64,000 nt of DNA from a virus (Duplodnaviria; Caudoviricetes). The notes under the pieces are model-generated. The model was not told the DNA's origin, did no database searches, and saw only the letters and a list, made by a program, of their open reading frames with translations. The translations under genes and the position numbers were made by a program. This document shows, one piece after another, positions 965 through 61,874 of this stretch; within the stretch, counting starts at the first letter, position 1, and each line of letters begins with the position of its first letter. The DNA is taken from the IMG/VR virus record IMGVR_UViG_3300044846_003474, positions 32,001-96,000 of that record; one strand, written 5' to 3'.

Positions 965-1447
965 ATGAAAAGAGTAATAAGATTAAATGAAACGGACATT
1001 ACCAATTTGGTAAAAAGAGTCCTTAATGAACAGAAAAGTGAACGATATATGTTCTTTTCTAATTTAGAACAAATGAGAAGACAATGTGATTTATTATTAG
1101 ATTTTGATCGTAGTACGGTTGAATCTATTTTAGATAATGGACATGATTGGGCTCAAGATCATATTTCTGAAGCTAAAAACAATATGGATCAAGTATTTGA
1201 TTTCATGATGAATGAAACCACAAGAGACGGTATGAAATCATCTACGAATATTGATGATGAAGATATGGTAATGTCGGAAGGAGATAAAAAAGTTGGCACA
1301 CCTCTTTGTGCGAGAGGTATTGCATCCGCAAAATCTAAATATGATGTATACCCTTCAGCATATGCAAATGGACACGCAGTACAAGTATGTAAAGGTACGA
1401 TTAAAGGTCTTGATGGTAAAAAACATTGTTCAGGAGCATATTGTTAA
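965..1447 (+). CDS. leader-bearing hypothetical protein with C-terminal YPSAYAN motif (DUF5872-like part)
   Basis: N-term MKRVIRLNETDITNLVKRVLNEQ; C-term CARG..AK.KY.VYPSAYAN..AVQVCKG. Confidence 0.65.
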   Translation: MKRVIRLNETDITNLVKRVLNEQKSERYMFFSNLEQMRRQCDLLLDFDRSTVESILDNGHDWAQDHISEAKNNMDQVFDFMMNETTRDGMKSSTNIDDEDMVMSEGDKKVGTPLCARGIASAKSKYDVYPSAYANGHAVQVCKGTIKGLDGKKHCSGAYC

Positions 1448-3192: not shown

Positions 3193-5022
3193 TTATCTCA
3201 ATTCTCTCAAGTCAAATGTTCTAACTCCATCAACTGTGATACGTCCGTAGAAACGGTTATTAACCATTTTCTTAGCGTATCTTGTCATTATACCTTTGAT
3301 AGGTGTAAAGTTGAATGGATTGTACATTGTAGGTGTCAATTGTAGAGGTACGTACGGTGCGTAGATGTAACCTGTGTCTAACAATGATGTTCCTTTGTGT
3401 CCTACTAACACTGTGTTAGCTGGGAAGTAAGGGTCACGGTAAACTTGGTAACGTCCTGCAAGAGTACCTACTCTTTCAATACCCATGTTATACTGATCTT
3501 GCTCAGGAGATGCGTTAGATACGTGGAAGTATTCTAAGTCATCAAAGATAGCTGAAATCTCAGAAGAAACTACGATCCAGTTAGCTCCACCTCTCAATGT
3601 AGATTTGTGGATTTGTGCTGACAATTGGTTAATCGCAGTAATCAAAGTTTGATTCCAATCTTTTTGAGTGTAAGATGTAGTTAAAGACAATCTTCTCCAT
3701 CCGTTGTAATCCCAACGTAAGTTCCAAGCCGCTCCTTTTCTCAAGTCACGTAAGATCTCACGGTCAATCTCAGCTGCAACTTGCTCAGATAACAATGCAG
3801 TTAACTCAGCTTCAGCGTCAATGTTATGGAATGCAGCAACGTCTTGAGCTAACTCAGGAGACCATTGTGCTCTTAGTTTTCTTTCAGTTACAGAAACAGT
3901 TACTGATTCTAAATCAAAAGAAACCTCACCGATTTTATCTTCAAACTCTAAGTTTTTGTATCTTCTGTAAACCGCAGTAAATGCAGTAGCTTGAGCGATA
4001 GCACTTAAAGTTGTTCCTGTGTATCCGTCTAATGTAGTACCACAAGTAGCACATACAGGACAAGATAAATCAACCTCTAAATAGATACATCCTTCTTCAT
4101 CACAGATATCGTAGTAAGAACCACCATTTCCTGTTGATGCGTAAGAAGTTTGAGCTTGACTACCGTATTTAACGATTCCTTTACCGTAGATTTGAGTAAC
4201 AACTCTAAACAATAATGGTGTTGATGCGTCAACAGTACAAGGTGATGTTTCAGCTACAGTTAAACCTGAACTTTTAATGATTTTAAGGTCAGATAAGAAA
4301 GTTTCAGTATCCATCTCGTTACCATCAGGTCCGATTAATTTACCTTCACCAGCTCTGTTAAAGTCACACATTTTGATAATAACTTTTCTTGTTCCTGTAG
4401 TTGCAGTGTATTGTGAATTATTATCACCCGCATTTTCTAAGGTACTACCACTCCAAACTTGTACGTTTGTTGCCGCAGTAACTGCAGTCCATTGACCTTT
4501 AGAGTAATCAAACAATCCTGGAGGATCTAACGCTGCTTCTGAACCTTCATAAAATAAATCATAAAGATTTTTAGCGTATGATGTACCTGTTCCACCTGGG
4601 TATCCTGCGTTGTCTGCCGGTGCAGGGCCATTTGGTGATCCGATTGGTGAATAATGTTCTCCACCGTTAGCGGTTGAATTATCATATCCTTGGATACGAG
4701 GTACAAAGAAGAACAATTTACCAATTGGTAAGTTCATTGCTTGTACAGAAACGATATCGTTAGCCAACAATTTAGAGAAAACTCTTCTTACGATAGGGAA
4801 AACAACTGTTTCAAATGCTCCGTTGGAACCTTCAGAAGTTGCTTCGTTAATCAAGAAAGAAGCTTGGTTTTCATACAACTGTGCTACGTTTTCTTTTAGG
4901 TGGCCTTTAAGGCCTTCAAGGAATCCTAATTTATCCCATTTGTTAATAGTATCTTCTTTGATAACTTTAAGGTGTTTTAACCCGATGTTACCAACAAGAC
5001 CTGATTCTAATAATGCTCCCAT
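3193..5022 (-). CDS. major capsid protein, T4 gp23-like
   Basis: P.VRRVF..L.ANDIVSVQAMNLP.G, RKLRA.WSPELAQD..AFH.IDAEAEL, G..YAPYVPL, F.P.KG.MTRY motifs. Confidence 0.95.
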   Translation of the reverse strand: MGALLESGLVGNIGLKHLKVIKEDTINKWDKLGFLEGLKGHLKENVAQLYENQASFLINEATSEGSNGAFETVVFPIVRRVFSKLLANDIVSVQAMNLPIGKLFFFVPRIQGYDNSTANGGEHYSPIGSPNGPAPADNAGYPGGTGTSYAKNLYDLFYEGSEAALDPPGLFDYSKGQWTAVTAATNVQVWSGSTLENAGDNNSQYTATTGTRKVIIKMCDFNRAGEGKLIGPDGNEMDTETFLSDLKIIKSSGLTVAETSPCTVDASTPLLFRVVTQIYGKGIVKYGSQAQTSYASTGNGGSYYDICDEEGCIYLEVDLSCPVCATCGTTLDGYTGTTLSAIAQATAFTAVYRRYKNLEFEDKIGEVSFDLESVTVSVTERKLRAQWSPELAQDVAAFHNIDAEAELTALLSEQVAAEIDREILRDLRKGAAWNLRWDYNGWRRLSLTTSYTQKDWNQTLITAINQLSAQIHKSTLRGGANWIVVSSEISAIFDDLEYFHVSNASPEQDQYNMGIERVGTLAGRYQVYRDPYFPANTVLVGHKGTSLLDTGYIYAPYVPLQLTPTMYNPFNFTPIKGIMTRYAKKMVNNRFYGRITVDGVRTFDLRELR

Positions 5023-5055: not shown

Positions 5056-6507
5056 TTATTTTATTTTTACCATTAAATCTTTCATTCTCAAGAACTGAGG
5101 ATTCTCATAAGTTTTAGATTCAATCAAATTAACGGCCGATCCTGATACAGGAGTTTTAGTGACCGATTTTTCGAATGACTCATTAATAGAGTTTTCCTTA
5201 GTTTTTTCAGATGAGAATTCATCTTTTAATGATTTGTAAAGACTTTTAGATTCTTTAAGTGTTTCAACATTGTCGAATCGTCTAAGTATATTTATTTTTT
5301 CTTGTTTTGTTGTTGAATGTTCTGTAAACAGTCTAGTTGCGTAAGCCAAATTAGAGTTAAAGATTGCTACTTCATTTAATTTAGTTCTGAAAAGATTCAA
5401 AGCCTTTCTGTACTCTTCATTTTTAGACTTTAGTAATTCCACTTCAGTCTCACTAATGTGTTGAGGAGCTGCTTTTGGTTTTGGTAAACCTTTTCTTCCA
5501 AATTTTGTTCCCGCACCTAATGTACGTGAAGCTTCTGTAGTTTCTCTTCTCTTTTTAATTGGTCTGTATTCACCATCTAAATTTTCTCCATCTTTATAAG
5601 AGAATTTTTTAGCACTTCCTGTATTGATCATTTTTTTACCTTCTTTTTGTTTGGTAGTTTTATAATCCATAACTTGTCCGTACTTGAATTTAGGTGAACC
5701 CATTCCAACGCCTTTAGCTTTAAATTTTGATTCCATTACATGATCCAAATCTTCTTCATCTAATTCTTCATATTCTTCTTCATCAGACATACCGAAGTCA
5801 TCCATTTCAATTTCATACAAAGTTTCATCAACATTAGTTTCGTACATTGGAGTTTCATACATTTCTTCATTATGTCTACGACTCATGCGTCTTGGTCTTT
5901 CTTCAAAATCCATTTCTTCATCTTCATCTTCATCGGACATACCGAAGTCGTCCATTTCAATTTCGTACAAAGTTTCGTCTAATGTAAGATCTTCATCTTC
6001 ATATTCATCTTCATATTCATCTTCTTCATCAAGTTCATCTTGATATTGTTCAGAAAGTTGGATGAAATAATCGGCTCCTGTTTCACTATCCGATAATGTA
6101 ATGTTATTACTCGCATCTCTCTTTACGATAACTCCATCTTCGTCATCCATAGATTTGAAAACTTTAATTACATCTGACATATCTGCTCCAGTCATGTCAA
6201 TTGCATCATCATCATCCGTACCCATGTCAATGTCTTCCATGTCGTCATCTTCCATGTCATCATCAGTATCCATAGGTTCTGCACCTAAATCTACATCCTC
6301 GACATCATCTACTTGACCTTCAGGTTCAACAACCTCTTCTTCGTCTTCAACGTCAATCTCTTCTTGTTCTCTAAGAGATTCTTTTACTAATGAGCTGATT
6401 TCATTCTTCATTGTAGAAGAAAGTATTCCTTTTGCATTTTCTTTAAGAGCTTCTTCCAAACTTTGAATTTGGAATAATGCGTCTTCAACAACTGATTTTT
6501 TGTTCAT
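5056..6507 (-). CDS. prohead core/scaffolding protein (gp22-like)
   Basis: Very acidic, coiled-coil C-terminus, lies between protease and capsid genes, many [IL]xE sites. Confidence 0.75.
   Translation of the reverse strand: MNKKSVVEDALFQIQSLEEALKENAKGILSSTMKNEISSLVKESLREQEEIDVEDEEEVVEPEGQVDDVEDVDLGAEPMDTDDDMEDDDMEDIDMGTDDDDAIDMTGADMSDVIKVFKSMDDEDGVIVKRDASNNITLSDSETGADYFIQLSEQYQDELDEEDEYEDEYEDEDLTLDETLYEIEMDDFGMSDEDEDEEMDFEERPRRMSRRHNEEMYETPMYETNVDETLYEIEMDDFGMSDEEEYEELDEEDLDHVMESKFKAKGVGMGSPKFKYGQVMDYKTTKQKEGKKMINTGSAKKFSYKDGENLDGEYRPIKKRRETTEASRTLGAGTKFGRKGLPKPKAAPQHISETEVELLKSKNEEYRKALNLFRTKLNEVAIFNSNLAYATRLFTEHSTTKQEKINILRRFDNVETLKESKSLYKSLKDEFSSEKTKENSINESFEKSVTKTPVSGSAVNLIESKTYENPQFLRMKDLMVKIK
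5778..5979 (-). repeat. intragenic direct repeat encoding DETLYEIEMDDFGMSDE twice
   Basis: Two near-identical ~50 bp copies within the scaffold gene. Confidence 0.7.
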
Positions 6508-6850: not shown

Positions 6851-7579
6851 TTATTTATCTAAATAATCGGTTAATCTTTTCATTAAGTCAAGTGATTTGT
6901 TACCACTTTCACCAACATTTCTTTCTACCGCTATTTTTTTGTCTTCTTCTAAGCTTTCCTCATATTTCATTCTATCGTTCTTATCTTGGAAAAGATAAGC
7001 ACCAGGTGTTGATGGTGAGGACACTAAGTCAAAACAAATAAGTTCAAAATCATCTTGTACTTCATTTTGTTCTCCAACTTTTTTAAGGGATCCTACACCA
7101 CGAGAAGATATACCTAAAGTAACTCCTTGTCGTAAGTAGTTTGCTGCCAAATCACCTTTAGTAGAAACAATCCCTCTTTCATGAAAACCAGGACTTGTTA
7201 ACAATTTAAGTTTACCTAACAATACAGGACCTTCCCACCATATATCTGTTATTAGGTGTGATACACGATCTAAATCAATTAAAGAAGACTCAGGGTGGTT
7301 TAATTCAGATAATGAGGTTCCTTTCTCAATCATCTTTCTATAATTTTCTGATTCTCTCTTTAATATCTTCTCAGGGTATACTCTACCATTTCTGTTAGGT
7401 GTATTGTATTTTTGTAGAACGGCATAAAATTCAAATGGTTTTGAATGGTCCAAATGATTTGATGATTCTTTTAATATCTCGTAATTACGACCTTCTTTTG
7501 GGTTAATATATCCTGCATCGTACTCAATAAGAATTCCTTTACCTGTATCTCTAGGTCCTAAAATTTTATATTCACTCAT
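6851..7579 (-). CDS. prohead maturation protease, T4 gp21-like (S77/U9)
   Basis: NRNGRVYP, ELNHP, VSH, GISSRGVGS, FDLVSSPSTPGA motifs. Confidence 0.93.
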   Translation of the reverse strand: MSEYKILGPRDTGKGILIEYDAGYINPKEGRNYEILKESSNHLDHSKPFEFYAVLQKYNTPNRNGRVYPEKILKRESENYRKMIEKGTSLSELNHPESSLIDLDRVSHLITDIWWEGPVLLGKLKLLTSPGFHERGIVSTKGDLAANYLRQGVTLGISSRGVGSLKKVGEQNEVQDDFELICFDLVSSPSTPGAYLFQDKNDRMKYEESLEEDKKIAVERNVGESGNKSLDLMKRLTDYLDK

Positions 7580-8158: not shown

Positions 8159-8347
8159 ATGCTGATCGTAAAAGTTAATAAAAATGGGGGGATTGAAAAA
8201 GCTCTAAAAGAATTAAAAAGTAAAGTTATTAAAACAAGACAAAACACCCATCTTAATAACAGAAAAGAACATACAAAAAAATCTGTCCTTAAGAGACAGA
8301 TTTTAAATAAAGCTATTTACAGACAAAAACAAATACTTAACAATTAA
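8159..8347 (+). CDS. rpsU: phage-encoded 30S ribosomal protein bS21
   Basis: 62 aa basic protein: IVKV....IEKALK..K.K..KT......RKE.TK.S..KR....KAIY; embedded among head genes. Confidence 0.85.
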   Translation: MLIVKVNKNGGIEKALKELKSKVIKTRQNTHLNNRKEHTKKSVLKRQILNKAIYRQKQILNN

Positions 8348-9060
8348 ATGTTTTCATTTAATTGTTTTAATTTGAAATAATTTAATTTGTCGTAATTTTC
8401 TATTTGTAATTTTTCTATTGTTTCGTTAATTTTTTGATTAGTTTCGGAATCTTCATTTTTAGATAATAAAGTTTCTAATTTTTCAATCACATCTTCTTTA
8501 AGAAATCCATATTTTTGATTAAGTTTTTCATCGGAAGTGTTTAATAAAATATTAAGTTGTTTTTTCTCACCTTCGGTTAAACTATCAATATGTGATTTAA
8601 TTGTATTGTTAGCCACCTCAACCATAGATTTTAATGGAACCTCAATCACTTTTTTTTCTTTTGATGGATCTTTTTTAAGATTTTCAGAAATAGTTTTTTT
8701 ACTTCTTAATTTTTCTTCGATTGTAGATGCGTTAGATGAAAATAAATTATCAATGTCTTGATACCTATTTTCTGAAACAATATGACCTACCCACATATTA
8801 AGATCTTTAAGGTCGTTTTTTTCTACCTTAGAGATTGTATTTTCAAATAATATAATACTTTCGTTAATATATTCATTTATAAAAGATTCATTTAAACCTT
8901 TGTTTTTACTAAGTTCATCATATAAAAAATAAAGTGTACTTAGAGATTTGTTTTTTAATACAAGTTCTTCAAAAACAAACATATTTTTTTTTAGAGAATC
9001 TTTTCTATAAGATTCAACTAAACAATCTTCAATCCTTGATTTTAATATTCCAAATTTCAT
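8344..9060 (-). CDS. hypothetical head-module protein
   Basis: 238 aa helical protein downstream of portal; TATTTAT motif upstream. Confidence 0.7.
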   Translation of the reverse strand: MKFGILKSRIEDCLVESYRKDSLKKNMFVFEELVLKNKSLSTLYFLYDELSKNKGLNESFINEYINESIILFENTISKVEKNDLKDLNMWVGHIVSENRYQDIDNLFSSNASTIEEKLRSKKTISENLKKDPSKEKKVIEVPLKSMVEVANNTIKSHIDSLTEGEKKQLNILLNTSDEKLNQKYGFLKEDVIEKLETLLSKNEDSETNQKINETIEKLQIENYDKLNYFKLKQLNENI

Positions 9061-9081: not shown

Positions 9082-10893
9082 TCAATCATTTAGTAATTTG
9101 TTTAATTGATCTTCCATAGATCCCAAAGAATTTCTACCTTTTGATAAATCAATAAACGTATCTCCCAATATATTATCATTTTCCAATAGTATATTTAAGT
9201 TATCTTTTTTTGATTCTCCTACAGGCATTTCACCTCCCATATCAGGTGGTGGTGGTGGCATTGCTCCTCCCATATCAGGTGCCGCACCAGGTGCAGGTGG
9301 TGCTCCTCCCGCATTTTGTGTTGCTCCTGTTGATGTGTGATAAAGTTTATCAACATTATCAAATAACCCCGTATGTGTGATTATAGTTGCGGTGTTATCT
9401 AACTCAGCAGATACCGCTCTTTCTAATCTTATTTGTTGTACTTCAAGTTTAATATCTTCATCAGAGAAACCAAATATATGTTTCTTAGCCCAAGTAGCAG
9501 ATGTTGGTTGAATTGATTTAGCAATCTCAGTAACCATATCCTTATACAATGTTACTTTTTCTTTCCATACGTCAATCATTAATAGATCGGCTTGTTTAGA
9601 TGGATTTGTTAAACCTAAGGTAAAGTTGTGTAATTCATCCTCAAACCCTAATAAGAATAGGTGAATAATTGCAATTTTATTTAATTCGGCAATAATTGCC
9701 TTTTGTATTTTATTGATTGTTCTTGCAAATCTAATGTCCAATAAAGATAGATTTTTACCATCACCAACAACTTCCTCAAACCCTAAATACGCTTTTGGAA
9801 TTCTTAGTGCGGTTAATAATTTCTTTTGGATGTACTCAATATCGGCAATCTCCGATAAGTTTTGAGCTCCCGCCAATGTCTCAATAGGCATTGTTTGGGC
9901 CACATCACGAACAGGAACAAAATAATCTTGATCTACCGCCATTTGATTGAAACGTAAATCCACATTACCTGTTTTACTATCCACAACTTGTTCTCTTTTA
10001 AACTTGTTTGCAACACGTTGTACATATGCCTCAACATCTTTGTCATCCATGTTACCAACAAACACTTTGAAAACTCGTCTTTCAGGTGCTCTTGATGTTC
10101 TATAGATTAACATTGCATCTTCAGCCAATACCAATTGTTTCCAAATACGACGAGCCTTTTCTAACATTGATGTACCATAAGGTAATTTTCTATCATCACC
10201 AAGTAATCTAAAGTGCGCAATTTCCCAAGTATTAAATTCCATGTCTTTTACTTTCCAATTGAATCTTAATCCTTTGTCGTTTGGATTTGGAGTTGCATTT
10301 ACGGTTCTTGATTCCATACCCCTCTCTAATCTTTCAATTTCAATATTAGGTAATTGGATACATCCCGTAACACCTTTTTCGGTATCTAATTTAAGGTAAA
10401 CAAAGTTGTCACCATATTTACAAGTATTTCTAACCCACATAGGTAAGTTAGTATTGATATCTAAGTTGTTAACAAATAAATCAACCAAGATACTTTTAAT
10501 TCTTTTTGATTCGGAGTAAATTTGTAATAAATAACCATCTTGATTAGGTGTTGTAGATTCTTCAGAATAAATGTCTAATGCCGTTGAAATCTCAGGTGTA
10601 AATTCCATTGATTCATAATCATAGAATGAGGCAATTCTATTTGGTTCATAATAAATTGCTTGAGTATATAAATTGTTTTCAATTTTTGCCCATTGATTAT
10701 TTAAAAATACTGATTGTTGATATTGTAGTTTTTCTTTTTCGTACTCTTTCTTATCAGTAGTTTTAAGAAGGACTTGTTTGTCCAACTTATATGTTGGATA
10801 ATCCATCCCTAATAACGAGTTAGGTCCAAAAGTCTTTGATAACCTCTGCCATATCGTTAAATTATTCATGTTGTTATTATTATTTTGTTCCAT
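9082..10893 (-). CDS. portal protein, T4 gp20-like
   Basis: PYGTSMLE.ARRIWKQL.L.EDAMLIYR..RAPERRVF..VGNM, DYF.P, IETL.G.QNL motifs. Confidence 0.93.
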   Translation of the reverse strand: MEQNNNNNMNNLTIWQRLSKTFGPNSLLGMDYPTYKLDKQVLLKTTDKKEYEKEKLQYQQSVFLNNQWAKIENNLYTQAIYYEPNRIASFYDYESMEFTPEISTALDIYSEESTTPNQDGYLLQIYSESKRIKSILVDLFVNNLDINTNLPMWVRNTCKYGDNFVYLKLDTEKGVTGCIQLPNIEIERLERGMESRTVNATPNPNDKGLRFNWKVKDMEFNTWEIAHFRLLGDDRKLPYGTSMLEKARRIWKQLVLAEDAMLIYRTSRAPERRVFKVFVGNMDDKDVEAYVQRVANKFKREQVVDSKTGNVDLRFNQMAVDQDYFVPVRDVAQTMPIETLAGAQNLSEIADIEYIQKKLLTALRIPKAYLGFEEVVGDGKNLSLLDIRFARTINKIQKAIIAELNKIAIIHLFLLGFEDELHNFTLGLTNPSKQADLLMIDVWKEKVTLYKDMVTEIAKSIQPTSATWAKKHIFGFSDEDIKLEVQQIRLERAVSAELDNTATIITHTGLFDNVDKLYHTSTGATQNAGGAPPAPGAAPDMGGAMPPPPPDMGGEMPVGESKKDNLNILLENDNILGDTFIDLSKGRNSLGSMEDQLNKLLND

Positions 10894-11122: not shown

Positions 11123-12892
11123 TTATCTATTACCAAATAACCAATTATATTTAATATAATCATCTTTAGATGGTCCTGAATCTCTTGACCATCTGTCATT
11201 TCTTACATTATTATTTGGGATAAGTGGGTCAAAATGTGTTTGTTGTCTTGCCGTGTTATCATTAACTACCGTCCAAGATTCTAACATTATTTTTGTTCTT
11301 TCAACAACCTTTTCTAATTTATTAAAAGATGACTCCCCAACATATATTGCCATAGAAATACCCATAATAAGGTCATCATGTTGACCTCTTTGGTGGTCAG
11401 GTCTACCATTAAGGTAAATAAAAGTGTTCATTTCGTTATATAACCTTACACTACGTATCTTAAACTTATGTCTCACATATTCTTCAAATGCCGCAATAAT
11501 CTGCACACGTTTATTGTTAAAGTTTAATCCCGGTATTTTATCCGCCAATTTTGCATTGTATGACCATATACTTGTAGAATCAATTCCCTCAATGTATAAA
11601 TTTTTATATCCAAGTTCTTGTAGTTTTCTAACTGTTGTAATACCCATACCACCAGTTATATCCACAACAATGAATGCGTTATACATCATTCCCCATTTAT
11701 ATGCAATTTCAGCAAGAGCGTCAGGTGGAATTTTTCCAACATATTCAAATACTTGTTCTCTATCGTCAAAATCAATAATTTGTATGGAAGAAAAGTCTTC
11801 ACTATCCCCACGAGAAACGTCAACACCCATAATATACTTATGTTCAGGTATAGGTTCTTTCCACATCCATAATGAATTACCCATCAATTTACCTGTTGGG
11901 TCCATAAGGGTGTTATTTTTAATATATTCTAATTGTGTATTCTCAAATACGTTATCACCCGAACCTAAAAATTCACAATTTAACTCTTGGTTAATCTTTC
12001 TTTTATCGTATTTAAGTTTTTTAACCATTTTCTCATACCAAGTAGAACATGGTTTATATCCTTTCTTGAAATATGAGTCTAATTCATCATAATCCCTTTT
12101 ATATGGGTCAATGTGAGCAAAGGATATGTGTTTACTCTCATCCTGTTCTTCTTTATTAAGAAGATATTTAACTAAATCTTCAGTTGGAACTAAAAATAAA
12201 TCTTTTGAATATCTTGGATCTCTATACCAAAACATCTCAGAGATTTTGAAGTTATTCATTCCCTTTAATGCTTGATCATATATATCATAATAAATCGGGT
12301 CATAACCATTTGGTGTTGAAACCACAATTACTTTACCCCCTGTGGATAAAGACGCCATACAAGCCGCCCAAAAATCACCATCCGCTTCAATAAATGCGGC
12401 TTCATCAAATACAAGAATTGTGGGGGTAAAACCACGCAAGGCATCTTTTGATGTTGCTACCGCCTTTACCTCAGACCCATTTGTTAATTTATAGTGTTTT
12501 TGTGAATTTTTATCATTTGAGAATCCCGCACCAACCCAACTTGGCCATTGATCAACAAACGTACGTATTTTATTTGCCATTTCCATTGATGTATCCAATT
12601 TGTTGGCAATAATAAGGATTTTTTCAGGTTGTGTTTTTTTAGCAAATACCAACCTTTTTGATATCCACGCACCTGTTACCGTAGACACACCCGCCTGACG
12701 ATATTTTAACGCAATATTCTCTTCATATTCCTCATAGTCATTTAATAACGATATCTGATCGGGAAATAACTCCAATGGTACGTATTTTGAAACTGTATTA
12801 TCGTATGTTTGTAGATATGTTTTTAATGCGTATGGAGTATCTTTCATACACTTCACATATTCCAACATTACCTGTTCTTTAGTTAAACCCAT
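11123..12892 (-). CDS. terminase large subunit, gp17-like
   Basis: KYRQAGVST Walker A, ILVFDEAAF Walker B, STPNG coupling motif, GVDVSRG.S.D and HDDL nuclease motifs; start moved to ATG 12892. Confidence 0.93.
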   Translation of the reverse strand: MGLTKEQVMLEYVKCMKDTPYALKTYLQTYDNTVSKYVPLELFPDQISLLNDYEEYEENIALKYRQAGVSTVTGAWISKRLVFAKKTQPEKILIIANKLDTSMEMANKIRTFVDQWPSWVGAGFSNDKNSQKHYKLTNGSEVKAVATSKDALRGFTPTILVFDEAAFIEADGDFWAACMASLSTGGKVIVVSTPNGYDPIYYDIYDQALKGMNNFKISEMFWYRDPRYSKDLFLVPTEDLVKYLLNKEEQDESKHISFAHIDPYKRDYDELDSYFKKGYKPCSTWYEKMVKKLKYDKRKINQELNCEFLGSGDNVFENTQLEYIKNNTLMDPTGKLMGNSLWMWKEPIPEHKYIMGVDVSRGDSEDFSSIQIIDFDDREQVFEYVGKIPPDALAEIAYKWGMMYNAFIVVDITGGMGITTVRKLQELGYKNLYIEGIDSTSIWSYNAKLADKIPGLNFNNKRVQIIAAFEEYVRHKFKIRSVRLYNEMNTFIYLNGRPDHQRGQHDDLIMGISMAIYVGESSFNKLEKVVERTKIMLESWTVVNDNTARQQTHFDPLIPNNNVRNDRWSRDSGPSKDDYIKYNWLFGNR

Positions 12893-12914
12893 AAGACATT
12901 TATATATAAATATC

Positions 12915-12948
12915 AAAACCCCCAGTTATTTTAATAAAAGGGGGTTTT
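12915..12948. terminator. intrinsic terminator
   Basis: AAAACCCCC...GGGGGTTTT inverted repeat. Confidence 0.6.
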
Positions 12949-18625: not shown

Positions 18626-18695
18626 CTAAATATGTGCCAAACCATAAAATATGACAAAATGTCAGTTAGTATTTTTTTACCATGACAATTTGTCA
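18626..18695 (-). promoter_or_regulatory. sigma54-like -24 box plus two TGACA-N3-TGTCA palindromes
   Basis: Minus strand TTGGCACATATTTAG at 18626-18640; palindromes at 18652-18664 and 18683-18695. Confidence 0.45.
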
Positions 18696-18747
18696 AAAGG
18701 TATACTTTTTAAACTTGATTTACTATTTTTTAATAAAACAAAAAGAT

Positions 18748-20808
18748 ATGATTGAATTTATGGATGAAAACGATAAAGGTAAAAAAAAGACCGATGGGGG
18801 AACACCAGTTTTAGATAACTTTAGTAAGGACTTAAATAAATTGGCAAGTGAAGGAAAATTAGATCCTGTAATTGGTCGTGAAAAGGAAATTTTTAGAATT
18901 GCACAAGTATTATCTCGTAGAAAGAAAAATAACCCAATAATCATTGGTGAGCCAGGTGCGGGTAAAACTGCAATTGTTGAGGGACTTGCAATGATGATAC
19001 ATAATGGTCAATGTCCAAAAAATTTATCAGATAAAAGAATCGTATCTTTAGATATTAACTCTATTGTTGCGGGTACAAAATATAGAGGTCAATTTGAGGA
19101 AAGAATGAAGATTATCATTGAGGAACTTCAAATGGCCCCAAATATCATCATCTTCATTGATGAGATCCACACAATGGTTGGTGCTGGTAATAGTTCAGGT
19201 TCTTTAGACGCATCTAACATATTCAAACCTGCATTATCTCGTGGTGAACTTCAATGTATTGGGGCAACAACTTTAGATGAGTATCGTAGACATTTTGAAA
19301 AAGATGGAGCATTAGAAAGAAGATTCCAAAAAATTGTTATTGATCCATCTACCAAAGAAGAAACCTTTGAAATCCTTAAACAAAGTAAGGGTAAATATGA
19401 AGAACATCACAAAGTTAACTATACTGATGAGGCATTGTTATTATGTGTAGAATTGGCAGATCGTTATATCACAGATCGTGAATTTCCTGATAAGGCGTTT
19501 GATATTTTGGATGAGGTTGGATCAAGAATGCAAATTGACATTAAACTTCCTGAAATTATTGAAAAATTAAAACAGGATGCTCAAGACATTAAAAAAGAAA
19601 AGGTAAATGTCATTAAAAAACAAAACTACGAACAAGCAGCAGAATTACGTGATAAAGAACGTAAAATTTTAACTGATTTGGAAAACGAAAAGAAAAAATT
19701 TGACAATGAACTTAAAACAAGTAAACGTGGTATTCCAGAAGAGATAATTTATGAGGTAGTTTCAAATATGACTAAAATACCTGTAAGTAAGATAAATATT
19801 GATGAGAAAAATTCTTTAGTTAATTTAGAATCAACATTAAACACTAACGTTATTGGTCAAGAAGAAGCCGTTGGTAAAATATCTAAATCAATTAGAAGAA
19901 ATCGTGTTGGAATTAAAGATCCAAATAGACCTATCGGTTCATTCATCTTTTTAGGGTCTACAGGTGTTGGTAAAACATTCTTAGCAAAACAATTAGCAAA
20001 AGAAATATTCGGTAGTGAGGATAATCTTATCCGTGTGGATATGTCCGAATACCAAGAAAAACACACAATATCAAGATTAATTGGATCTCCTCCAGGATAT
20101 GTAGGACACGAAGAAGGTGGACAACTTACAGAACAAGTTAAAAACAAACCTTATTGTGTTATTTTATTTGATGAGATTGAGAAGGCAAATAAAGATATAT
20201 TTTCAACGTTATTACAGATGTTAGATGATGGACATCTAACTGATGGGTTAGGTAGAAAGATCAATTTCAAGAATTGTTTGATTATCATGACATCTAACAT
20301 TGGTGTTAGAAAATTACAAGACTTTGGTACAGGTGTTGGTTTCAAATCAAGTAACTCAAGTGAAGTTGTCCAAGAAGAACAAAAAAGAGATGTTCTTAAA
20401 AAAGAACTTAGTAAATTTTTCGCCCCTGAATTTTTAAATAGAATTGATGATGTTGTTATATTTAACTCTCTAAATAAAGATAACATTGATAAAATTGTAA
20501 AATTAGAAATTGATATTTTAGTTAAAAGACTAAAATCTATGAAGTATAATTTCACATATGAAAATTCAATAATTGATTTAATTTCAAAAGTTGGTTTTGA
20601 TGAGATATTTGGGGCAAGACCAATTAAAAGAGCAATTCAAAATAAAATAGAAGATTTAATATCTGAAAAAATCTTAACAGGTGAAGTTACAGAAAACAAA
20701 GATTATAGGTTATTTGTTAAAACAGAAAATGATGAACAAATAATTGATCTTGAAGAAAAAGTAATAATGGAACCTAAGAAAAAAGTTAGAAAGAAAAAGG
20801 GAGAATAA
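18748..20808 (+). CDS. clpC: ClpC/ClpA-family AAA+ chaperone lacking the N-terminal Clp-repeat domain
   Basis: GEPGAGKT and GSTGVGKT Walker A motifs, FIDEIH and LFDEIEK Walker B motifs, UVR middle domain QNYEQAAELRD, VGF ClpP-docking loop. Confidence 0.9.
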   Translation: MIEFMDENDKGKKKTDGGTPVLDNFSKDLNKLASEGKLDPVIGREKEIFRIAQVLSRRKKNNPIIIGEPGAGKTAIVEGLAMMIHNGQCPKNLSDKRIVSLDINSIVAGTKYRGQFEERMKIIIEELQMAPNIIIFIDEIHTMVGAGNSSGSLDASNIFKPALSRGELQCIGATTLDEYRRHFEKDGALERRFQKIVIDPSTKEETFEILKQSKGKYEEHHKVNYTDEALLLCVELADRYITDREFPDKAFDILDEVGSRMQIDIKLPEIIEKLKQDAQDIKKEKVNVIKKQNYEQAAELRDKERKILTDLENEKKKFDNELKTSKRGIPEEIIYEVVSNMTKIPVSKINIDEKNSLVNLESTLNTNVIGQEEAVGKISKSIRRNRVGIKDPNRPIGSFIFLGSTGVGKTFLAKQLAKEIFGSEDNLIRVDMSEYQEKHTISRLIGSPPGYVGHEEGGQLTEQVKNKPYCVILFDEIEKANKDIFSTLLQMLDDGHLTDGLGRKINFKNCLIIMTSNIGVRKLQDFGTGVGFKSSNSSEVVQEEQKRDVLKKELSKFFAPEFLNRIDDVVIFNSLNKDNIDKIVKLEIDILVKRLKSMKYNFTYENSIIDLISKVGFDEIFGARPIKRAIQNKIEDLISEKILTGEVTENKDYRLFVKTENDEQIIDLEEKVIMEPKKKVRKKKGE

Positions 20809-23093: not shown

Positions 23094-23503
23094 GGGGGTG
23101 TTTTTGGATTTGACAGGTATTGGCTGAAGACAAAGGGCACGTGGAGACTGAATTAATCTCCTTAAAAACTGATTCACAAAAACAATCGGCGACGTTTTAT
23201 CGAAAATGGAAACTCTTGGTTTACTAAGAGAATCTGAAGTTACTGTAGCCTAAGAGGTTTACGGAAACGGGGGGTCGGTGGACACATAACCTAGCAACAG
23301 AAGTCTTTATGGTGGAATACGATTGAACCATAAATCGAGTCGTCCATTGGTTGTTGATTTACGATGGTGAAGAACAAATCAACTTTGTTTTTGGTCAAAT
23401 TAAAACCAAATATTTTGGGGTATTAGAAAATACCAACCTAAACGTGTAGTCCTTATCTGACAGGATATTATGGACCGGAGTTCGAGCCTCCGCACCTCCA
23501 CCA
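23094..23503 (+). ncRNA. ssrA: tmRNA
   Basis: 5' GGGGGTG..GGATTTGAC; 3' CGGAG-TTCGAGC-CTCCG T-arm then CACCTCC-A-CCA; G3.U70 alanine determinant; tag ORF 23188-23253. Confidence 0.93.
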
Positions 23504-23611: not shown

Positions 23612-24490
23612 AAAAAACCTGAGATTACAGTTTTCGTAAGTGTCTTTCGAGTCATTATTGGTTCTACTCTTATCCACAGGATTTTGTCCTGTAACACTCA
23701 TTACCGATTGGTTAGACCAATCACTCCTTGACGATACAACTACTCTCTTACTACTCCTGTCTCCCCAAGATTGCGTCCTGGTTCGGTCTTCGACGACCTA
23801 GAGATTTTTCATAAAAATACGGTCAAACTTGCGGTTATCACGTTCCACTGACAGCCAGTGAATAGGTGGGTAACTTCCGTTATATCGTGACGGACACTTT
23901 TGCTTTATAGTTTATAAATGTTACTTCATTAACATTAAAGTTTTTGTGTCGTGGATTGATCAAAGTTGTGGTCCGTCTTAAGCTTCATTATCTTTTGAAT
24001 AACAAAATACCAAACAACTCCGTGAAATGTCCCCATTTCAATATTTCAAGACTACTTCAAGATTAATCTCTTGGTAGAGATTTATCAAGGACAATGTCAG
24101 CACCACCTGTTTGTTGTCATACCTTTCGGTTTTAAGTACCCTATCGTACTGGGATCCGCAATAACAACATTGGAAATATTGATTCTTGCATTATCCCTAC
24201 GAGTTATTCCTATTGGAGTTCCCTCCTCAACAAGATGACCCACATCACCTCGTCATAAAATCACTTTCCCTACACCGTTGGCCTCGGTACTAAAGATCTT
24301 ATGGTATCTCGCCTGTGTACTTGACCTCAATGATCCGAAGATCACTAAGACGCAAACCCGTTACACTTGGGGGTTCACTTTATCCTACTTTCGTAGTTTA
24401 TTTTATGGACTATACACGGCCCAATATCTTTATCAGTTTCACTTTTAAACCCAAAGGTTCTTAACTTAATCCTGAACGGATAATATCTAA
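23612..24490 (-). ncRNA. large structured ncRNA (~870 nt), GOLLD-like candidate
   Basis: No ORF >=60 aa, GC above background, many hairpins including GAAA tetraloops, own promoter (24531-24561) and terminator-like hairpin (23564-23586); ends boundaries approximate. Confidence 0.6.
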
Positions 24491-24818: not shown

Positions 24819-25685
24819 TTATTTTAATAAATTTTTAATTCGTTGTACGTCTTCTTGTATTTTTGACACTTCTTCTTCTTCTTTAAATATACCTCCAAAG
24901 TTTTTAAAAAAGTCAAGAAAACCACCTTTTTTGGGATTAGTTTTATCATCATCATTAGTGGAAGTATCAGTAGTTGTAGTGGTTACATTGTCTTTTTTGT
25001 CTTCTTTATCTTCTTTATCTTTTTGATCTTTTTGATCTTTTTGATCTTCTTTATCTTTTTGATCAACTGATACGTCTACGTTATCATTACCTCCGGGTAA
25101 TTCGTCTTCAGGTGTGTCCCAATACTTAGTAGCGTATGTCTTACATTTTTTACCTTCAGTTGCCTGTTTATTTGTGGATACCTCTCCATGACCAAACACA
25201 TTTGATAGTGAATACCCTAAACTTTTAATTAATAATAATGCCGTTTTACATTGTTTAATTGTAATATCATCATCGTTTAATCCAATAATTTCAACACCTT
25301 CTGAGCTTGAATTATTTATGTGTCCCATACCTGATTTTTGATGGGCAACATGAGCACCCTTAGATCCTTTTGGTAACGCTTGATATAATTTACCATCTCT
25401 ATCTATAATCCATTGAATTCCTAAAGTAGTACATTTTGAACTACCCTTGTAATGTCTACAATTTAAAATTTTAACAACTTGAGAAGGAGTTCCTTTACCT
25501 GCAGTATGATGTATTAAAAAATATTTAGGACTAAATTGTTTTCCTTTGAATTTTGATTCTCCAGATATATTTGTAATTTGTAAAGAAGACTCATTTAGAT
25601 ATTTAGGTCTATTGGGTACATCAGTGGATGAAAGTTTTTGTTGTAAAACTTTTAAATGTTCTAATAAAATAAAATCATTTTTCAT
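24819..25685 (-). CDS. N-acetylmuramoyl-L-alanine amidase (Amidase_2) with N- and C-terminal extensions
   Basis: IHHTAG, GAHVA, GVEIIG, FGHGEV Zn-amidase motifs; DQK/DKE repeat linker. Confidence 0.8.
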   Translation of the reverse strand: MKNDFILLEHLKVLQQKLSSTDVPNRPKYLNESSLQITNISGESKFKGKQFSPKYFLIHHTAGKGTPSQVVKILNCRHYKGSSKCTTLGIQWIIDRDGKLYQALPKGSKGAHVAHQKSGMGHINNSSSEGVEIIGLNDDDITIKQCKTALLLIKSLGYSLSNVFGHGEVSTNKQATEGKKCKTYATKYWDTPEDELPGGNDNVDVSVDQKDKEDQKDQKDQKDKEDKEDKKDNVTTTTTDTSTNDDDKTNPKKGGFLDFFKNFGGIFKEEEEVSKIQEDVQRIKNLLK

Positions 25686-26319: not shown

Positions 26320-26370
26320 ATAATTAATAAATACCCAACAATTTAAAAAAATAACCAAGTATTTATTATT

Positions 26371-27294
26371 ATGAGAAATTTAATCCATGAATGTCTAATT
26401 GAGGAGTTTAGACCTGATCTAATAAAAGAGTGTACAATCGCTGCGGTAAGGTTAGATAATGGTGTTGTTTTAGCGAAAAATAGAGACAGAGGATACAAAT
26501 CAAACGTTGAGGTTATACACGAATTAATAGATGATGTGGAAATTCTTTATTGGAGAGACGTTGACACCGATTGGAGTGAAGGAATGAACGAATATGGTAT
26601 TGGGATTGTTAATTCAAGTCTTATGGTTTCTCAGGACGAAAAAGAAGGTAAAGAAGTGGCAAAAAATAGGAAAGATAAAACCGCAAAAAAAAGACTGTCA
26701 TACGATGGTAATAAAATTAGAAAAGCGTTAACATATAAAACATTACCTAAAGTAATTAAATCAATTGTTGGTTATTCAGGTGAGGATAAGAAAGATGTCG
26801 GTTTAAAAGGAGAAACATTTGTTTCAGATTCAAACAACATATATGTTGTTGAGATGACATCAAAACATTCACCAATAATAAAAAAATTGAAAAAAGAACA
26901 AAAAGTTCTTGTTAGAACAAATCACGGTGTTTACCATAAGGAAGCCGGTTATACAAAAGGTGAGAAAAAAAAATCATCACATTCAAGGATGAATTTAGCA
27001 AAAAAACATTTAAAAGATGTTAAAACACCACAAGAAGTTATTGATAGGTTAAAGGAAAAATATAAAGAGGATCCGTTTTTAAATCCATATAGAACCGATA
27101 ATATGTACCATATGCAAACAACAGGTCAAATTATGATGGATCTTGAAAAAAAAGAAATTGTAATTAGAATGGATAATGAAATGGGGAACTTAGTTGGGAT
27201 CAAGAATAAATTACCTAAAGATTATACTCCCAAATTAAAAGTAAAAATTGAGAACGAAAAAACTCACAATAAAGGTAAAAAATTACCAACATAA
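26371..27294 (+). CDS. Cys-type Ntn hydrolase (C45/C59-like) with 20-aa propeptide
   Basis: CT.......VLAKNRD, EGMNEYGIGI, VRTNH, S..R motifs. Confidence 0.7.
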   Translation: MRNLIHECLIEEFRPDLIKECTIAAVRLDNGVVLAKNRDRGYKSNVEVIHELIDDVEILYWRDVDTDWSEGMNEYGIGIVNSSLMVSQDEKEGKEVAKNRKDKTAKKRLSYDGNKIRKALTYKTLPKVIKSIVGYSGEDKKDVGLKGETFVSDSNNIYVVEMTSKHSPIIKKLKKEQKVLVRTNHGVYHKEAGYTKGEKKKSSHSRMNLAKKHLKDVKTPQEVIDRLKEKYKEDPFLNPYRTDNMYHMQTTGQIMMDLEKKEIVIRMDNEMGNLVGIKNKLPKDYTPKLKVKIENEKTHNKGKKLPT

Positions 27295-27320
27295 AAAAAC
27301 CCACCTTGTGAGTGGGTTTA
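27295..27320. terminator. bidirectional terminator
   Basis: AAACCCAC-cttgtga-GTGGGTTT. Confidence 0.65.
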
Positions 27321-27323: not shown

Positions 27324-28001
27324 TTAAAAATTGTTTACATCTGTACTATTTTCTTCTTCATCTTCTCTTTCTACAGATCCAAGGTTTAAGTCAATAGCTG
27401 GTATCGGAGGAGTTTTAGTGGCAAATGTTGTTTTAGCAAAAGATATTACTTGTAAAGTTGTAAGTGCTATGTTAATCCATTCTTTTACGTTCATTTGGTT
27501 TCCTTTCTTTTCTTCCGCCTTCTGTTTCAGTCCCTGCAATACTAACTGTTGTTGATTTAAAGATTTAAATTTCTCCGTCAACACTTTACATCTTTGTTTA
27601 TTTGCCCTGTCGCCAAATATTTTTAATTTCTGGCATTTCTTGTCTATTTCGTCCGATGTCGTCTGTATATTTTTGACTATTGCTTCAACTTGCATTTTAG
27701 TATTTTCTATTGCCTGTTGTTGTTTAATTGCACTAATATTAGTATTTAGTTCCGATTGAAGCGATTTAATATTCTGTAGTTGTGATTCAAGTTTTGATAA
27801 AATAGTATTATTTTCAGAATTTGAAATCACTGGTGTCGAAATCTCAGGTTCAGGTTCAGGTCCAAGTCCAGGTCCAGATTTTTTAATCGGAACTGGTGTT
27901 GGGTCTGGTGTATTGTATTCAAATAAAAATTCTTTTTTTATTGCATTCCTATGCATCCCCAATATTCTTTCTTTTTCACTTTCGCTAATTATTAAATTCA
28001 T
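27324..28001 (-). CDS. leader-bearing coiled-coil hypothetical protein
   Basis: N-term IISESEKERILGMH...LFE. Confidence 0.65.
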   Translation of the reverse strand: MNLIISESEKERILGMHRNAIKKEFLFEYNTPDPTPVPIKKSGPGLGPEPEPEISTPVISNSENNTILSKLESQLQNIKSLQSELNTNISAIKQQQAIENTKMQVEAIVKNIQTTSDEIDKKCQKLKIFGDRANKQRCKVLTEKFKSLNQQQLVLQGLKQKAEEKKGNQMNVKEWINIALTTLQVISFAKTTFATKTPPIPAIDLNLGSVEREDEEENSTDVNNF

Positions 28002-28182: not shown

Positions 28183-28450
28183 AATTTTGTTTTTTATAGT
28201 TTATTTATAACAATAAATATATCAAAAACATTATTTAGACCATTTATCTTTTAAAAATAAATAAGTATATATTGATAATATAATAATTGGAGTAAGGATT
28301 GAGACAATTATTTCTGATGTCATAATTATTGTTTTTATATAAACGTAAATAAAATTTTAAAGTTTTAGTTAATTAATATTGATGTAAAAATAGTTTTTAT
28401 TAACCAAGCATTAATTAATATTGTGGACCATATGAGATAAAAGCCCTAAG

Positions 28451-28540
28451 TAATCAAAAAAGGATTCGAACCAATACAACCGTTTTTAACTCGGTCTCCC
28501 CAATAAGATGGGTAGCGTCTACCAATTCCGCCATTTGATT
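28451..28540 (-). pseudogene. tRNA-Leu-like element with aberrant anticodon and T arms
   Basis: AATCAAA/TTTGATT acceptor, Leu-type D arm TGGCGGAATTGGTAGACGC, GGTTCGAATCC; anticodon arm does not fold canonically. Confidence 0.55.
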
Positions 28541-39731: not shown

Positions 39732-40349
39732 ATGAAGATTGTAATAACTGAACATCAATATGAAAAATTATTATTAGAGAGTAGTAAATCTATAATCGGT
39801 GATGAAATTAAACGTTCTAAAGAGTTTATTAAGAAGATAGTTAGATCTGTAAAAGAAGATACTAAATTGGATTTTAGTTTCTTATTTACATGGGGGGCAG
39901 CAATTGGAGGATTCTCAAGACCTGTTTTTAATTATTTTGAAGGTAAGAACCCTGAACTGACTAATCAAGATTTGGCTTTATTGTCAATTGCTTGTGCGGT
40001 TACTTACTACACATCTAATAAAGAAAAATTAAGTAAATTATTAGGTATCATTAAAGAACGTGGTTTAGTTACTTCTTTTAACGAAATGTTAGAAAAAACA
40101 GATGAATTAAAAAATACTTTCTTATCGTTTGTTGATAGTTTAAAAGTTACAGGTCATAAAATATCTAGTATGTTAGCATACACATTTATTATTCCTTTTT
40201 TATCAAAATTATTGGATATGAGTGGTGGAGCAACAAGTTCCGATATAACGGTCTTATCTAAAATAATATTAGGTTACTTGGCGGTTAAAATATCTTCTAC
40301 GACTTTAACAGAATTAATTACAAAGATTATTGAAAGGTTCAGATCTTAA
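39732..40349 (+). CDS. leader-bearing protein with hydrophobic helices
   Basis: MKIVITEHQYEKLLLE leader; TATTTAT at 39717-39723. Confidence 0.65.
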   Translation: MKIVITEHQYEKLLLESSKSIIGDEIKRSKEFIKKIVRSVKEDTKLDFSFLFTWGAAIGGFSRPVFNYFEGKNPELTNQDLALLSIACAVTYYTSNKEKLSKLLGIIKERGLVTSFNEMLEKTDELKNTFLSFVDSLKVTGHKISSMLAYTFIIPFLSKLLDMSGGATSSDITVLSKIILGYLAVKISSTTLTELITKIIERFRS

Positions 40350-41690: not shown

Positions 41691-42101
41691 TTACCAAGTT
41701 CTACACGCCCAATATCTTGGTTTCCATCTTGGGCCGGGATTATCACAATTGTGTCTTGCTCTAAATGATCTTCTTCTTTCAGGATTATTCTTCTTAATCC
41801 TCATTATTTTACCTTTGGCTGATTTTCCACCAAAACCAAAGTTTACCTTAACAACCTTACCTTTATCATTTTTAACATATACTTTGGACTTTTTAATGTC
41901 ACCTTGCATTATCTTACCCAACTGAACTTTTCTTCCCTGATATTCCGCTTCGGTTATTAAATCGCCAATAATAAAGTTGGTTTCTTCTACTGAACCATAT
42001 TCATCTTCATATAAAAAATTTGATTCATTAGTTTCTTTTAATATACTTAAAACAATTCTTTGTATGTCTGACTCGGTTAAAACAACAATATTTTTTGACA
42101 T
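41691..42101 (-). CDS. leader plus basic C-terminal domain (DUF5754-like)
   Basis: VVLTESDIQRIV..ILKE; ITE|AEYQG..KKSKVYV..VNFG..RR.SFRARH.C..RYW.C..W. Confidence 0.65.
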   Translation of the reverse strand: MSKNIVVLTESDIQRIVLSILKETNESNFLYEDEYGSVEETNFIIGDLITEAEYQGRKVQLGKIMQGDIKKSKVYVKNDKGKVVKVNFGFGGKSAKGKIMRIKKNNPERRRSFRARHNCDNPGPRWKPRYWACRTW

Positions 42102-55452: not shown

Positions 55453-55501
55453 TTTTTTTGTTTTATTATAAATATTATGTTTTTATAAAAAAATTTATTT
55501 T

Positions 55502-56458: not shown

Positions 56459-56510
56459 TTTTTTCTAATTTTTATTGTTATATATAAATATATTAATCTT
56501 TAAAAAATTT

Positions 56511-57047: not shown

Positions 57048-57048
57048 T

Positions 57049-58137: not shown

Positions 58138-58143
58138 GTTTTT

Positions 58144-58527: not shown

Positions 58528-58612
58528 AATTTATAGTTTTATAATAAATATATCGTTATTTTGCTTTTACATTATTAAATATATAATATATACTTAAAAA
58601 AAAGAATATATT

Positions 58613-59038: not shown

Positions 59039-59063
59039 TACCAACAACTTTTAAGTTGTTTAA

Positions 59064-59959: not shown

Positions 59960-60002
59960 ATAATTGATTTACTATATAAATATAAGTGATTTTGGAAAAT
60001 AT

Positions 60003-60182: not shown

Positions 60183-60245
60183 AATTAAATTATAGTTTTT
60201 GTTGTTAAAAAGGAAATAAAAAATCCCTCTTGTGGAGGGATTATG

Positions 60246-60940: not shown

Positions 60941-60961
60941 AGTTTTTTTATTATAAATATA

Positions 60962-61873: not shown

Positions 61874-61874
61874 C

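Follow-up and report, generated by a model that had tools for sequence, protein, structure and literature searches.

We examined a 64,000-nucleotide stretch of viral DNA (hereafter the window), comprising positions 32,001 to 96,000 of IMG/VR virus record IMGVR_UViG_3300044846_003474 (Duplodnaviria; Caudoviricetes) and forming part of a 108,260-bp viral contig. The subject of this analysis is a gene at 26371..27294 encoding a probable N-terminal-nucleophile (Ntn) hydrolase, a member of a class of textbook self-activating enzymes, whose catalytic cysteine may instead be uncovered by the prohead protease of the phage. The gene and its immediate surroundings contain the following features, with coordinates given in the window throughout and a slash marking a predicted or known point of cleavage:

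26371..27294, plus strand: precursor of a predicted Cys-Ntn hydrolase, C45/AAT-like, 307 aa (open reading frame, ORF; Pfam AAT; NCBIfam C45_proenzyme)
26371..26430, plus strand: 20-residue leader or propeptide, MRNLIHECLIEEFRPDLIKE (from the sequence)
26422..26433, plus strand: predicted scissile junction I18-K19-E20/C21, P3 to P1 followed by P1' (E and C invariant in homologs)
26360..26366, plus strand: TATTTAT promoter-like motif, 4 nt before the hydrolase ATG (upstream enrichment)
27297..27319, minus strand: terminator-like hairpin between the hydrolase gene and the convergent gene 27324..28001 (scan; 9-pair stem, then a T run)
27324..28001, minus strand: convergent adjacent ORF with a family-type leader, MNLIISESEKERIL... 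(regular expression and unbiased leader detection)

The preliminary description of this locus read the ORF as MRNLIHECLIEEFRPDLIKE/CTIAAV...AKNRD, with Cys21 placed behind I-K-E, and this reading is exact. The N-terminal region of the precursor is MRNLIHECLIEEFRPDLIKE/CTIAAVRLDNGVVLAKNRDRGY, with the codons for I18-K19-E20 at 26422..26430 and that for C21 at 26431..26433. The leader holds three [LI]-x-E motifs, namely I5-H-E7, L9-I-E11 and I18-K-E20. The stretch has been recovered in no fewer than 18 metagenome runs from lake water.

The proposed identity of the protein as an Ntn hydrolase is supported by profile matches and by the invariance of the cysteine. Pfam AAT (PF03417) matches at 26.4 bits (cutoff 23.2), with an aligned part restricted to residues 149-235, and is also matched by 18 of 24 aligned homologs (E<=0.01), while NCBIfam NF040521 (C45_proenzyme) matches at E=1.9e-14, residues 7-263 aligning to profile positions 73-313. 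Neighbours in the ESM Atlas are viral clusters, some with AAT, together with one bacterial cluster with CBAH and AAT; the window protein itself gave no match to Pfam CBAH, and a comparison with PHROGs assigned the hydrolase to no family. In an alignment of 56 sequences that spans all classes of residue found before the cysteine (mean column identity 26%), C21, K36, R38, D39, G71, N73, G147, N184, G193, S202 and R206 are invariant. Moreover, the cysteine is residue 2, right behind the initiator methionine, in 13 of 149 representative relatives, and this position is a classic signature of Ntn enzymes. We consequently regard the window protein as a predicted Cys-Ntn hydrolase of C45/AAT type, with a presumed alpha-beta-beta-alpha fold. 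One homolog search gave 1405 proteins at E<=1e-3 and another 470 representative clusters (50% identity) at E<=0.001, and the family appears to be essentially viral: pattern scans of bacterial and archaeal genomes (185,579 species genomes) for cellular relatives, including forms with Glu before the cysteine (xE/C), yielded none with alignment A1 and one contig of a metagenome-assembled genome (MAG) with alignment A2.

Conservation of the junction in front of the nucleophile is extreme among close relatives. A 24-sequence alignment reaching down to 57% identity shows no substitution of E20 or C21 and only L, I or V at P3, the remaining leader being variable in both length and sequence. The preliminary description had proposed a check on the conservation of [IL]xE-C among homologs, and [LIVM]-x-E/C is kept in 118 of 118 untruncated close homologs. 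Over a wider range, 149 representatives chosen at 50% identity divide into 52 with [LIVM]-x-E/C, 74 with [KR]-x-[AGS]/C (class 2) and 13 with M/C, plus one T-x-E, one L-G-Q and 8 truncated sequences; the 239 viral loci, among which some contigs were retrieved by more than one scan, comprise 218 with [LIVM]-x-E/C, 12 with M/C, 6 with [KR]x[AGS]/C, 2 with F-N-E and 1 that is cut off. Among 171 xE/C sequences, P3 is I in 94, L in 57, V in 16, M in 3 and T in 1, and P1 is never Asp. Leader lengths extend from 4 residues (MLNE/C, MINE/C) to several hundred, with a maximum of ~430 among the representatives. A FastTree phylogeny of 145 domain sequences places xE/C as deep and paraphyletic, with M/C arising 2-4 times inside it and [KR]x[AGS]/C forming one derived clade. 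Since sister lineages possess M/C or [KR]x[AGS]/C, the P3 and P1 residues are not needed for folding or catalysis, yet judging by these alignments both are rigidly kept wherever a leader exists in xE/C lineages.

A candidate for the protease that would read such a site is encoded in the T4-type head module of the same window, which contains:

3193..5022, minus strand: major capsid protein (MCP), Gp23 family (PF07068, 248.8 bits), with predicted site ...ASFLINE60/ATSEG
5056..6507, minus strand: probable scaffold protein between protease and MCP (position only, no family hit)
6851..7579, minus strand: prohead protease, Peptidase_S77, T4 gp21 type, the proposed activating enzyme (PF03420, 77.5 bits; phrog_207)
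8159..8347, plus strand: ribosomal protein bS21 (Pfam, 32.3 bits against a cutoff of 27), on the opposite strand inside the head module
9082..10893, minus strand: T4-type portal protein (PF07230, 250 bits)
11123..12916: terminase

The S77 protein has the LNHP and G[IV]SSRG[VL]GS blocks in common with T4 gp21 (AF158101), and the protease looks intact. All 17 MCPs aligned from related contigs have [ILV]-x-E in the predicted maturation column, suggesting that the T4 cleavage rule is retained in this clade; the window MCP site, L-I-N-E/A, and the hydrolase site, L-I-K-E/C, are nearly identical. The T4 sites themselves, read from AF158101, are ...GSFLTE65/AEIGG in gp23, MKTYQEFIAE/A in IPII and IPIII, MELITE/L in Alt, MEGLIE/A in gp67, MNEPQLLIE/T in gp21, MLKEQLIAE/A in gp22 and MAKINELLRE/S in gp24. 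According to PMC9026906, PMC5694885 and PMC3012670, cleavage by T4 gp21 falls after Glu, the 10-residue capsid-targeting sequence (CTS) of IPIII directs cargo into the prohead, and Alt, an enzyme, is packaged and stripped of a short propeptide; in the first of these sources, CTS residues 8 and 10 (P3 and P1) are described as controlling processing, which is blocked by Asp at position 10 (P1).

A complex prediction for the protease core (residues 40-205) with the precursor, run with alignment A1, returned 'weak support', scoring 0.50 against 0.00 for the best of 3 controls, with at least 76% contact agreement between runs, a partner pLDDT of at least 78 and no interface reported. Of 157 solved complexes, 116 pass the mark employed, as do 2 of 215 mismatches; passing scores of 0.60 or lower take in only 18 of the 157 solved complexes and both of the passing mismatches; these calibration counts are only rough here, since a custom alignment was supplied. 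We give the predicted protease-precursor pairing little weight.

Two further features of the head module may be recorded here. The MCP is 609 aa long, its best stretch aligned to Pfam Gp23 being residues 343-594, and a ~230-residue Gly/Ser/Thr-rich insertion lies behind its conserved N-terminal segment. The bS21 gene inside the head module places this phage among the bS21-encoding Bacteroidetes myophages described in PMC9723584.

The second line of evidence comes from other proteins of the same genome, many of which start with leaders of a few recurrent kinds. A regular expression detects 30 of 140 genome ORFs that start M-K-I-I-I-T-E-S-Q... or M-x-R-I-V-R-L-T-E-R-D-L-T-R-L-V-K-R-V-I-x-E..., and motif-free detection places 29 of 143 in shared N-terminal 10-mer families, with 0 and 0 in the internal 10-mer controls. 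Members within or beyond the window include:

965..1447, 39732..40349, 41691..42101 and 54871..63774, plus 96-108 kb of the genome past the window: leader-bearing ORF regions (leader detection)
39732..40349, plus strand: leader-bearing ORF, MKIVITEHQ..., with TATTTAT 8 nt upstream
57049..58137, minus strand: leader-bearing protein, MAKIIKLNENDLKRIVTKVLNE..., with a peptidoglycan-binding domain
59639..63774, minus strand: array of leader ORFs (MNKVVRLTESNL..., MKIIITENQ..., MKIILTENQ..., MKIIITETQ...), running past the window end

These leaders (MKIIITESQ... or M.RIVRLTERDLTRLVKRVI.E...) are carried by unrelated small proteins, many of them in tandem arrays. Past residue 30, 28 of 30 leader proteins have no mutual similarity. 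Where leader residues are identical, their codons differ in 46% of comparisons, and this synonymous-codon diversity rules out a DNA-level repeat or recombination origin for the shared leaders. The leaders are thus modular and conserved at the protein level.

Comparable families occur in relatives, where they include the hydrolase itself. In a complete close relative, 53 of 309 ORFs belong to N-terminal families (controls 2 and 0), and its hydrolase (MNLKDSIKNILRE...LVE/C) clusters with the MNLQESIRRILREE... leader family; in a third lineage, 10 of 195 ORFs form a family (controls 0 and 0) in which all members start MIKLKDIL-x-E, the hydrolase (MIKLRNLLHELNE/C) being one of the ten. In two tests with profiles drawn solely from the leaders of other proteins, 15 and 38 of the 125 unique hydrolase leaders scored at least 8 bits, compared with 0.7% and 0.5% of shuffled sequences. 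Of 1374 neighbouring ORFs, 41 have the MIKL-type start, compared with 5 of 4524 internal-Met controls, and 24 of these 41 complete their first [LIVM]-x-E at residue 10, as T4 IPIII does. At the L210 and L216 loci, the hydrolase (MIKLLDLLKE/C or MIKLIDLLKE/C) has its cysteine at residue 11 and is accompanied by several unrelated neighbours that begin MIKL...[IL]-x-E10; the contig of L216 encodes S77. As none of the other leader carriers is an Ntn enzyme, autoprocessing cannot be what demands the terminal [IL]-x-E, and the economical reading of these sequences is that a shared protease site explains the common leader end. The leader families resemble T4 capsid-targeting propeptides and possibly mark a greatly expanded set of capsid-targeted cargo.

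A 288-kb class-2 contig without S77, Gp23 or T4 portal (G018, loci L284-L298) has N-terminal families of its own, such as MPKSLTASDRSSLIKLA.SLEKGS.ERKAI... and MKNLK.ILA.EGL..., and [LIVM]-x-E is present in only 3 of 12 members. These families are, by eye, rich in [KR]-x-[AGS] triplets, the motif that precedes the cysteine in that lineage, and the triplets might reflect a different specificity of the maturation protease.

The class of junction also covaries with the protease. S77 is present in 23 of 34 xE/C contigs (12/16 and 11/18), and in all 7 of those that are at least 90% complete. It is also present in the complete genome of the cultured Chryseobacterium phage MA9V-2, whose hydrolase homolog reads ...AFINE/CVIAAKK.... 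None of 6 [KR]x[AGS]/C contigs has S77, including contigs of 266 kb, 288 kb and 222 kb (terminal repeats), and neither do any of 5 M/C contigs, all of which are at most 32% complete and hence uninformative. The preliminary description held that homologs lacking E before the cysteine would count against it; such homologs occur, and they do so only in lineages without detected S77 (the six class-2 contigs and the five uninformative M/C fragments), a distribution that fits the idea. In MA9V-2, the S77 match lies inside a 1213-aa open frame (L258, record 165584-168922), and a 'prohead core protein serine protease' ORF of 4,044 nt is listed in the paper on MA9V-1; in these phages the protease is thus joined to a large additional region.

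The TATTTAT that the preliminary description noted at 26360-26366 proves to be a real promoter-like element, common to the scaffold and protease genes, and no chance occurrence. No other 7-mer is as enriched in the genome's 80-nt upstream regions, 38 of 140 of which contain it (5.7 expected). The 8-mer TATTTATA occurs in 23 such regions (2.1 expected), and at 66 of 112 unique related loci TATTTAT is present no more than 60 nt ahead of the hydrolase start, against an expectation of ~2.9%. The 8-mer stands 14 nt upstream of the S77 protease gene and 19 nt upstream of the scaffold gene, and TATTTAT(A) also precedes the head-module ORF 8344..9060, an endolysin gene, at least 11 leader genes and, before the start of the window, ORFs of unassigned function in the structural-gene stretch. 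Its spacing to the ATG falls into two classes, 4-5 nt (nine genes) and 11-19 nt. The 8-mer is the reverse complement of the T4 late-promoter consensus, TATAAATA; TATTTAT is nonetheless ruled out as a T4 late promoter by its mainly sense orientation (36 sense, 18 antisense). In related phages, as reported in PMC9723584, the scaffold-like gene with the MCP gene, and the protease gene with its downstream gene, are late co-transcribed units, and these units begin where TATTTAT lies in the window. From this we infer late timing for the hydrolase gene. Four lake metatranscriptome runs (contigs only) give essentially no cover over 26309-26975 and, as starts and strand are not resolvable in them, are uninformative on this point.

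Several other features surround the hydrolase gene. A gene for an Amidase_2 protein (N-acetylmuramoyl-L-alanine amidase; 24819..25685, minus strand) lies two genes away, and its product has a leader-like start, MKNDFILLEHLKVL..., and an acidic and lysine-rich repeat tail, DQKDKEDQKDQKDQKDKEDKEDKKD. Upstream of it, an ORF-free stretch holds a full-length GOLLD RNA (RF02032, 292 bits, model 1-416; 23616..24022, minus strand) and a tmRNA (RF00023, 105.8 bits; 23094..23503, plus strand), the latter not listed by ARAGORN; in the four lake metatranscriptome runs, summed contig depth reaches thousands over 22974-24974, compared with ~0-30 elsewhere. Between the packaging genes and the hydrolase region lies a gene for a 708-aa homolog of an AAA+ 'ATP-dependent protease' (18682..20808, plus strand; phrog_4871, E=2.8e-235). 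On the other side of the hydrolase gene, ARAGORN lists a tRNA with an unassigned four-base anticodon, ctta (28450..28540, minus strand), which Rfam tRNA matches at 31.2 bits, just over threshold.

Considering these observations together, we think it reasonably probable that the hydrolase is a packaged zymogen, cut at E20/C21 by the S77 prohead protease of the phage. On this account, the 20-residue leader would keep the catalytic alpha-amino group of Cys21 blocked, and the precursor would be made late, alongside the head proteins, and brought or accompanied into the prohead by its leader, as are T4 internal proteins and Alt. The gp21-type protease would then cut after I18-K19-E20, and probably also at L9-I10-E11, such that one cut would both remove the leader and create the N-terminal nucleophile, with the amine and thiol of a new Cys1. 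The hydrolase would be active only inside the maturing capsid, and would then be delivered, armed, with the DNA into the next host. It probably attacks an amide bond, whether of a small molecule of the host, of a peptide or of a constituent of the cell wall; a cell-envelope substrate is weakly hinted at by the leader protein with a peptidoglycan-binding domain and by the neighbouring Amidase_2 with its leader-like start. A broader proposal, which we advance tentatively as a possibility, is that a large group of T4-like Bacteroidetes phages load tens of cargo proteins (~1/5 of ORFs) by means of such leaders, including a conserved Ntn hydrolase that acquires its nucleophile through cleavage in trans by the prohead protease, and that the motif before the cysteine has co-evolved with the mode of maturation ([LIV]xE with S77; M/C or [KR]x[AGS]/C elsewhere).

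Several observations weigh against cleavage by S77, and a number of them suit an explanation that we consider unlikely, albeit credible: that the protein is an ordinary autoproteolytic Ntn hydrolase, in which the leader is a short intramolecular propeptide shed independently of the capsid protease by an N-to-S acyl shift at E20-C21, [LIV]-x-E serves self-cleavage and activity is cytoplasmic, within the cell that makes the phage. Autoproteolysis is the default of the C45 family by definition, the best-matching profile (NF040521) being entitled 'C45 family autoproteolytic acyltransferase/hydrolase'; related Ntn enzymes also shed short propeptides autocatalytically, and glycosylasparaginase has Asp-Thr, so that an acidic P1 is compatible with autoprocessing. 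Leaders as short as MLNE/C are reminiscent of the tripeptide-type propeptides found in penicillin V acylase-like enzymes, leaders of 4-7 residues are too short alone for a T4-like 10-residue targeting signal, and the M/C lineages imply that the enzyme can exist ungated. The hydrolase gene lies outside the head module, ~19 kb from it. The window leader scores -0.1 and -0.7 bits on two leader profiles, with 559 of 1000 shuffles as high, and by sequence it appears to be tied to the families solely through its collinear orthologs, whose hydrolase leaders score ~17-20 bits on a leader-family profile (MKELIKKILLEETSPKVIEE, 20.5 bits). Eleven of the 34 xE/C contigs have no S77 match, all of them less than 90% complete and one at 89%, and the three large class-2 contigs have no Gp23, T4 portal, S80 or S78 and are not T4-like. 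Because [KR]x[AGS] is essentially one clade, and its large contigs are not T4-like, the association between junction class and S77 is confounded with phage lineage and has no standing as independent evidence; common ancestry alone could account for it. Among the remaining points against, TATTTAT taken as a -10 element 4 nt from the ATG leaves no room for a 5' untranslated region, the C45_proenzyme score of 53.7 bits is below the curated cutoff of 85, sequence and profile searches of the PDB with the protein and with alignments A1 and A4 returned chance-level hits only, and the virion protein data for MA9V-1 in its phage paper are SDS-PAGE only.

Autoproteolysis nevertheless leaves unexplained why the same [IL]-x-E leaders stand on dozens of unrelated non-Ntn proteins, why the E10 of a generic leader abuts the cysteine in L210 and L216, and why the motif is swapped for M/C or [KR]x[AGS]/C in sister lineages; autoprocessing sites are usually small at P1, as in [KR]x[AGS]/C. 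Nor does it account for the match of P3 and P1 to the experimental determinants of gp21 cleavage given in PMC9026906. The leaders could alternatively serve export or routing into a different assembly, or act as a degradation or regulatory tag or to optimise translation start, the hydrolase being matured by a host or other phage protease, or its cysteine exposed after delivery, with no packaging into capsids. Such a role would accord with the extracytoplasmic action hinted at by the peptidoglycan-binding leader protein and the Amidase_2 neighbour, with the AAA+ ATP-dependent protease homolog of the genome, and with the N-terminal families, different in kind, of a class-2 contig without S77. We regard it as improbable, given that the leaders are hydrophilic and amphipathic and are not signal peptides, that their length and terminal [LI]-x-E are like those of T4 Alt, gp67 and IP propeptides, and that they are conserved at the protein level and share their motif with the MCP maturation site; moreover, internal or ejected proteins with cell-wall activity fit packaging too. 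A degenerate Ntn-like domain, retained as a structural or cargo protein and no longer an enzyme, might be suspected from the restriction of the Pfam match to residues 149-235 and from the NCBIfam score under cutoff, but the invariance of C21, K36, R38, D39, N184 and R206 in the divergent 56-sequence alignment, and the 470 representative clusters of the family, make this very improbable.

Activation by the prohead protease has partial parallels in several known systems. One is with Alt and IPI-III of T4, which according to PMC9026906 and PMC3012670, together with AF158101, are late cargo that includes an enzyme (Alt, an ADP-ribosyltransferase), have propeptides of 6-19 residues ending in [LI]-x-E, are cleaved by S77 in the prohead and injected with the DNA, and bear a conserved leader on diverse cargo. 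Unlike the junction considered here, in which P1' is the Ntn nucleophile and cleavage would activate the enzyme, the T4 cut is not known to create a catalytic residue; in addition, the leader families here, known from sequence alone, are far larger (29/143 to 53/309 ORFs). The C45 hydrolases (isopenicillin-N acyltransferase, AAT) are alike in profile similarity, in the exposure of the cysteine by upstream removal and in a K/R-D after the first beta-hairpin, which in the window hydrolase we assume corresponds to the known AAT catalytic residues. They differ in that the pro-region comprises ~20 residues here and ~85 model positions there (the match starting from profile position 73), in P1, which is Glu in the window protein, and in that the hydrolase family is almost wholly viral. 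In AAT, P1 is a small residue (Gly-Cys). Penicillin V acylase and bile salt hydrolase share their M-C start with the 13 representatives mentioned above, and one ESM Atlas neighbour cluster has CBAH, whereas the window protein begins with a leader of 20 residues and does not match Pfam CBAH.

The ejection proteins of phiKZ and SPN3US, as covered by the available parts of PMC10052503 and PMC5694885, likewise possess head-internal propeptides cut after Glu (A/S/G-x-E), often at several sites each, but the protease is S80 with another P3 preference, and those parts report no Ntn hydrolase among its substrates. Polyvalent proteins, which in the survey PMC5512222 are packaged multidomain effectors (two to fifteen effector domains) with self-processing modules, resemble the [KR]x[AGS]/C relatives: the 74 representatives have a median length of 723 aa and a maximum of 2792 aa, and the domain is internal in 27. 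The window protein, by contrast, is single-domain at 307 aa, only class-2 relatives being multidomain, and the survey makes no mention of Ntn hydrolases. In relatives P0139-P0266, the [KR]x[AGS]/C domain is embedded, N-terminally or internally, in giant proteins of this kind, where self-cleavage would split the polyprotein.

Among the papers listed by full-text literature searches, there was no Ntn or C45 protein described as a prohead-protease substrate, and no description of these leader motifs or of families on this scale. Capsid cargo processed by gp21 and Ntn hydrolases are each already known; their coupling, in which cleavage would create the nucleophile, did not come up in these searches. 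If the proposal is correct, the enzyme would be the first of the Ntn class to owe its activation to a separate protease rather than to itself, and would represent a new way to gate the Ntn fold, the nucleophile being unmasked by a viral maturation protease. A virus would in this way hold a potentially self-harming enzyme in check until the capsid encloses it. The leaders, furthermore, point to a very large set of proteins, as yet unexplored, that abundant freshwater Bacteroidetes phages package and eject, with counter-defence factors likely among them, and the combination of a leader family with [LI]-x-E may provide a sequence rule by which such packaged proteins can be found.

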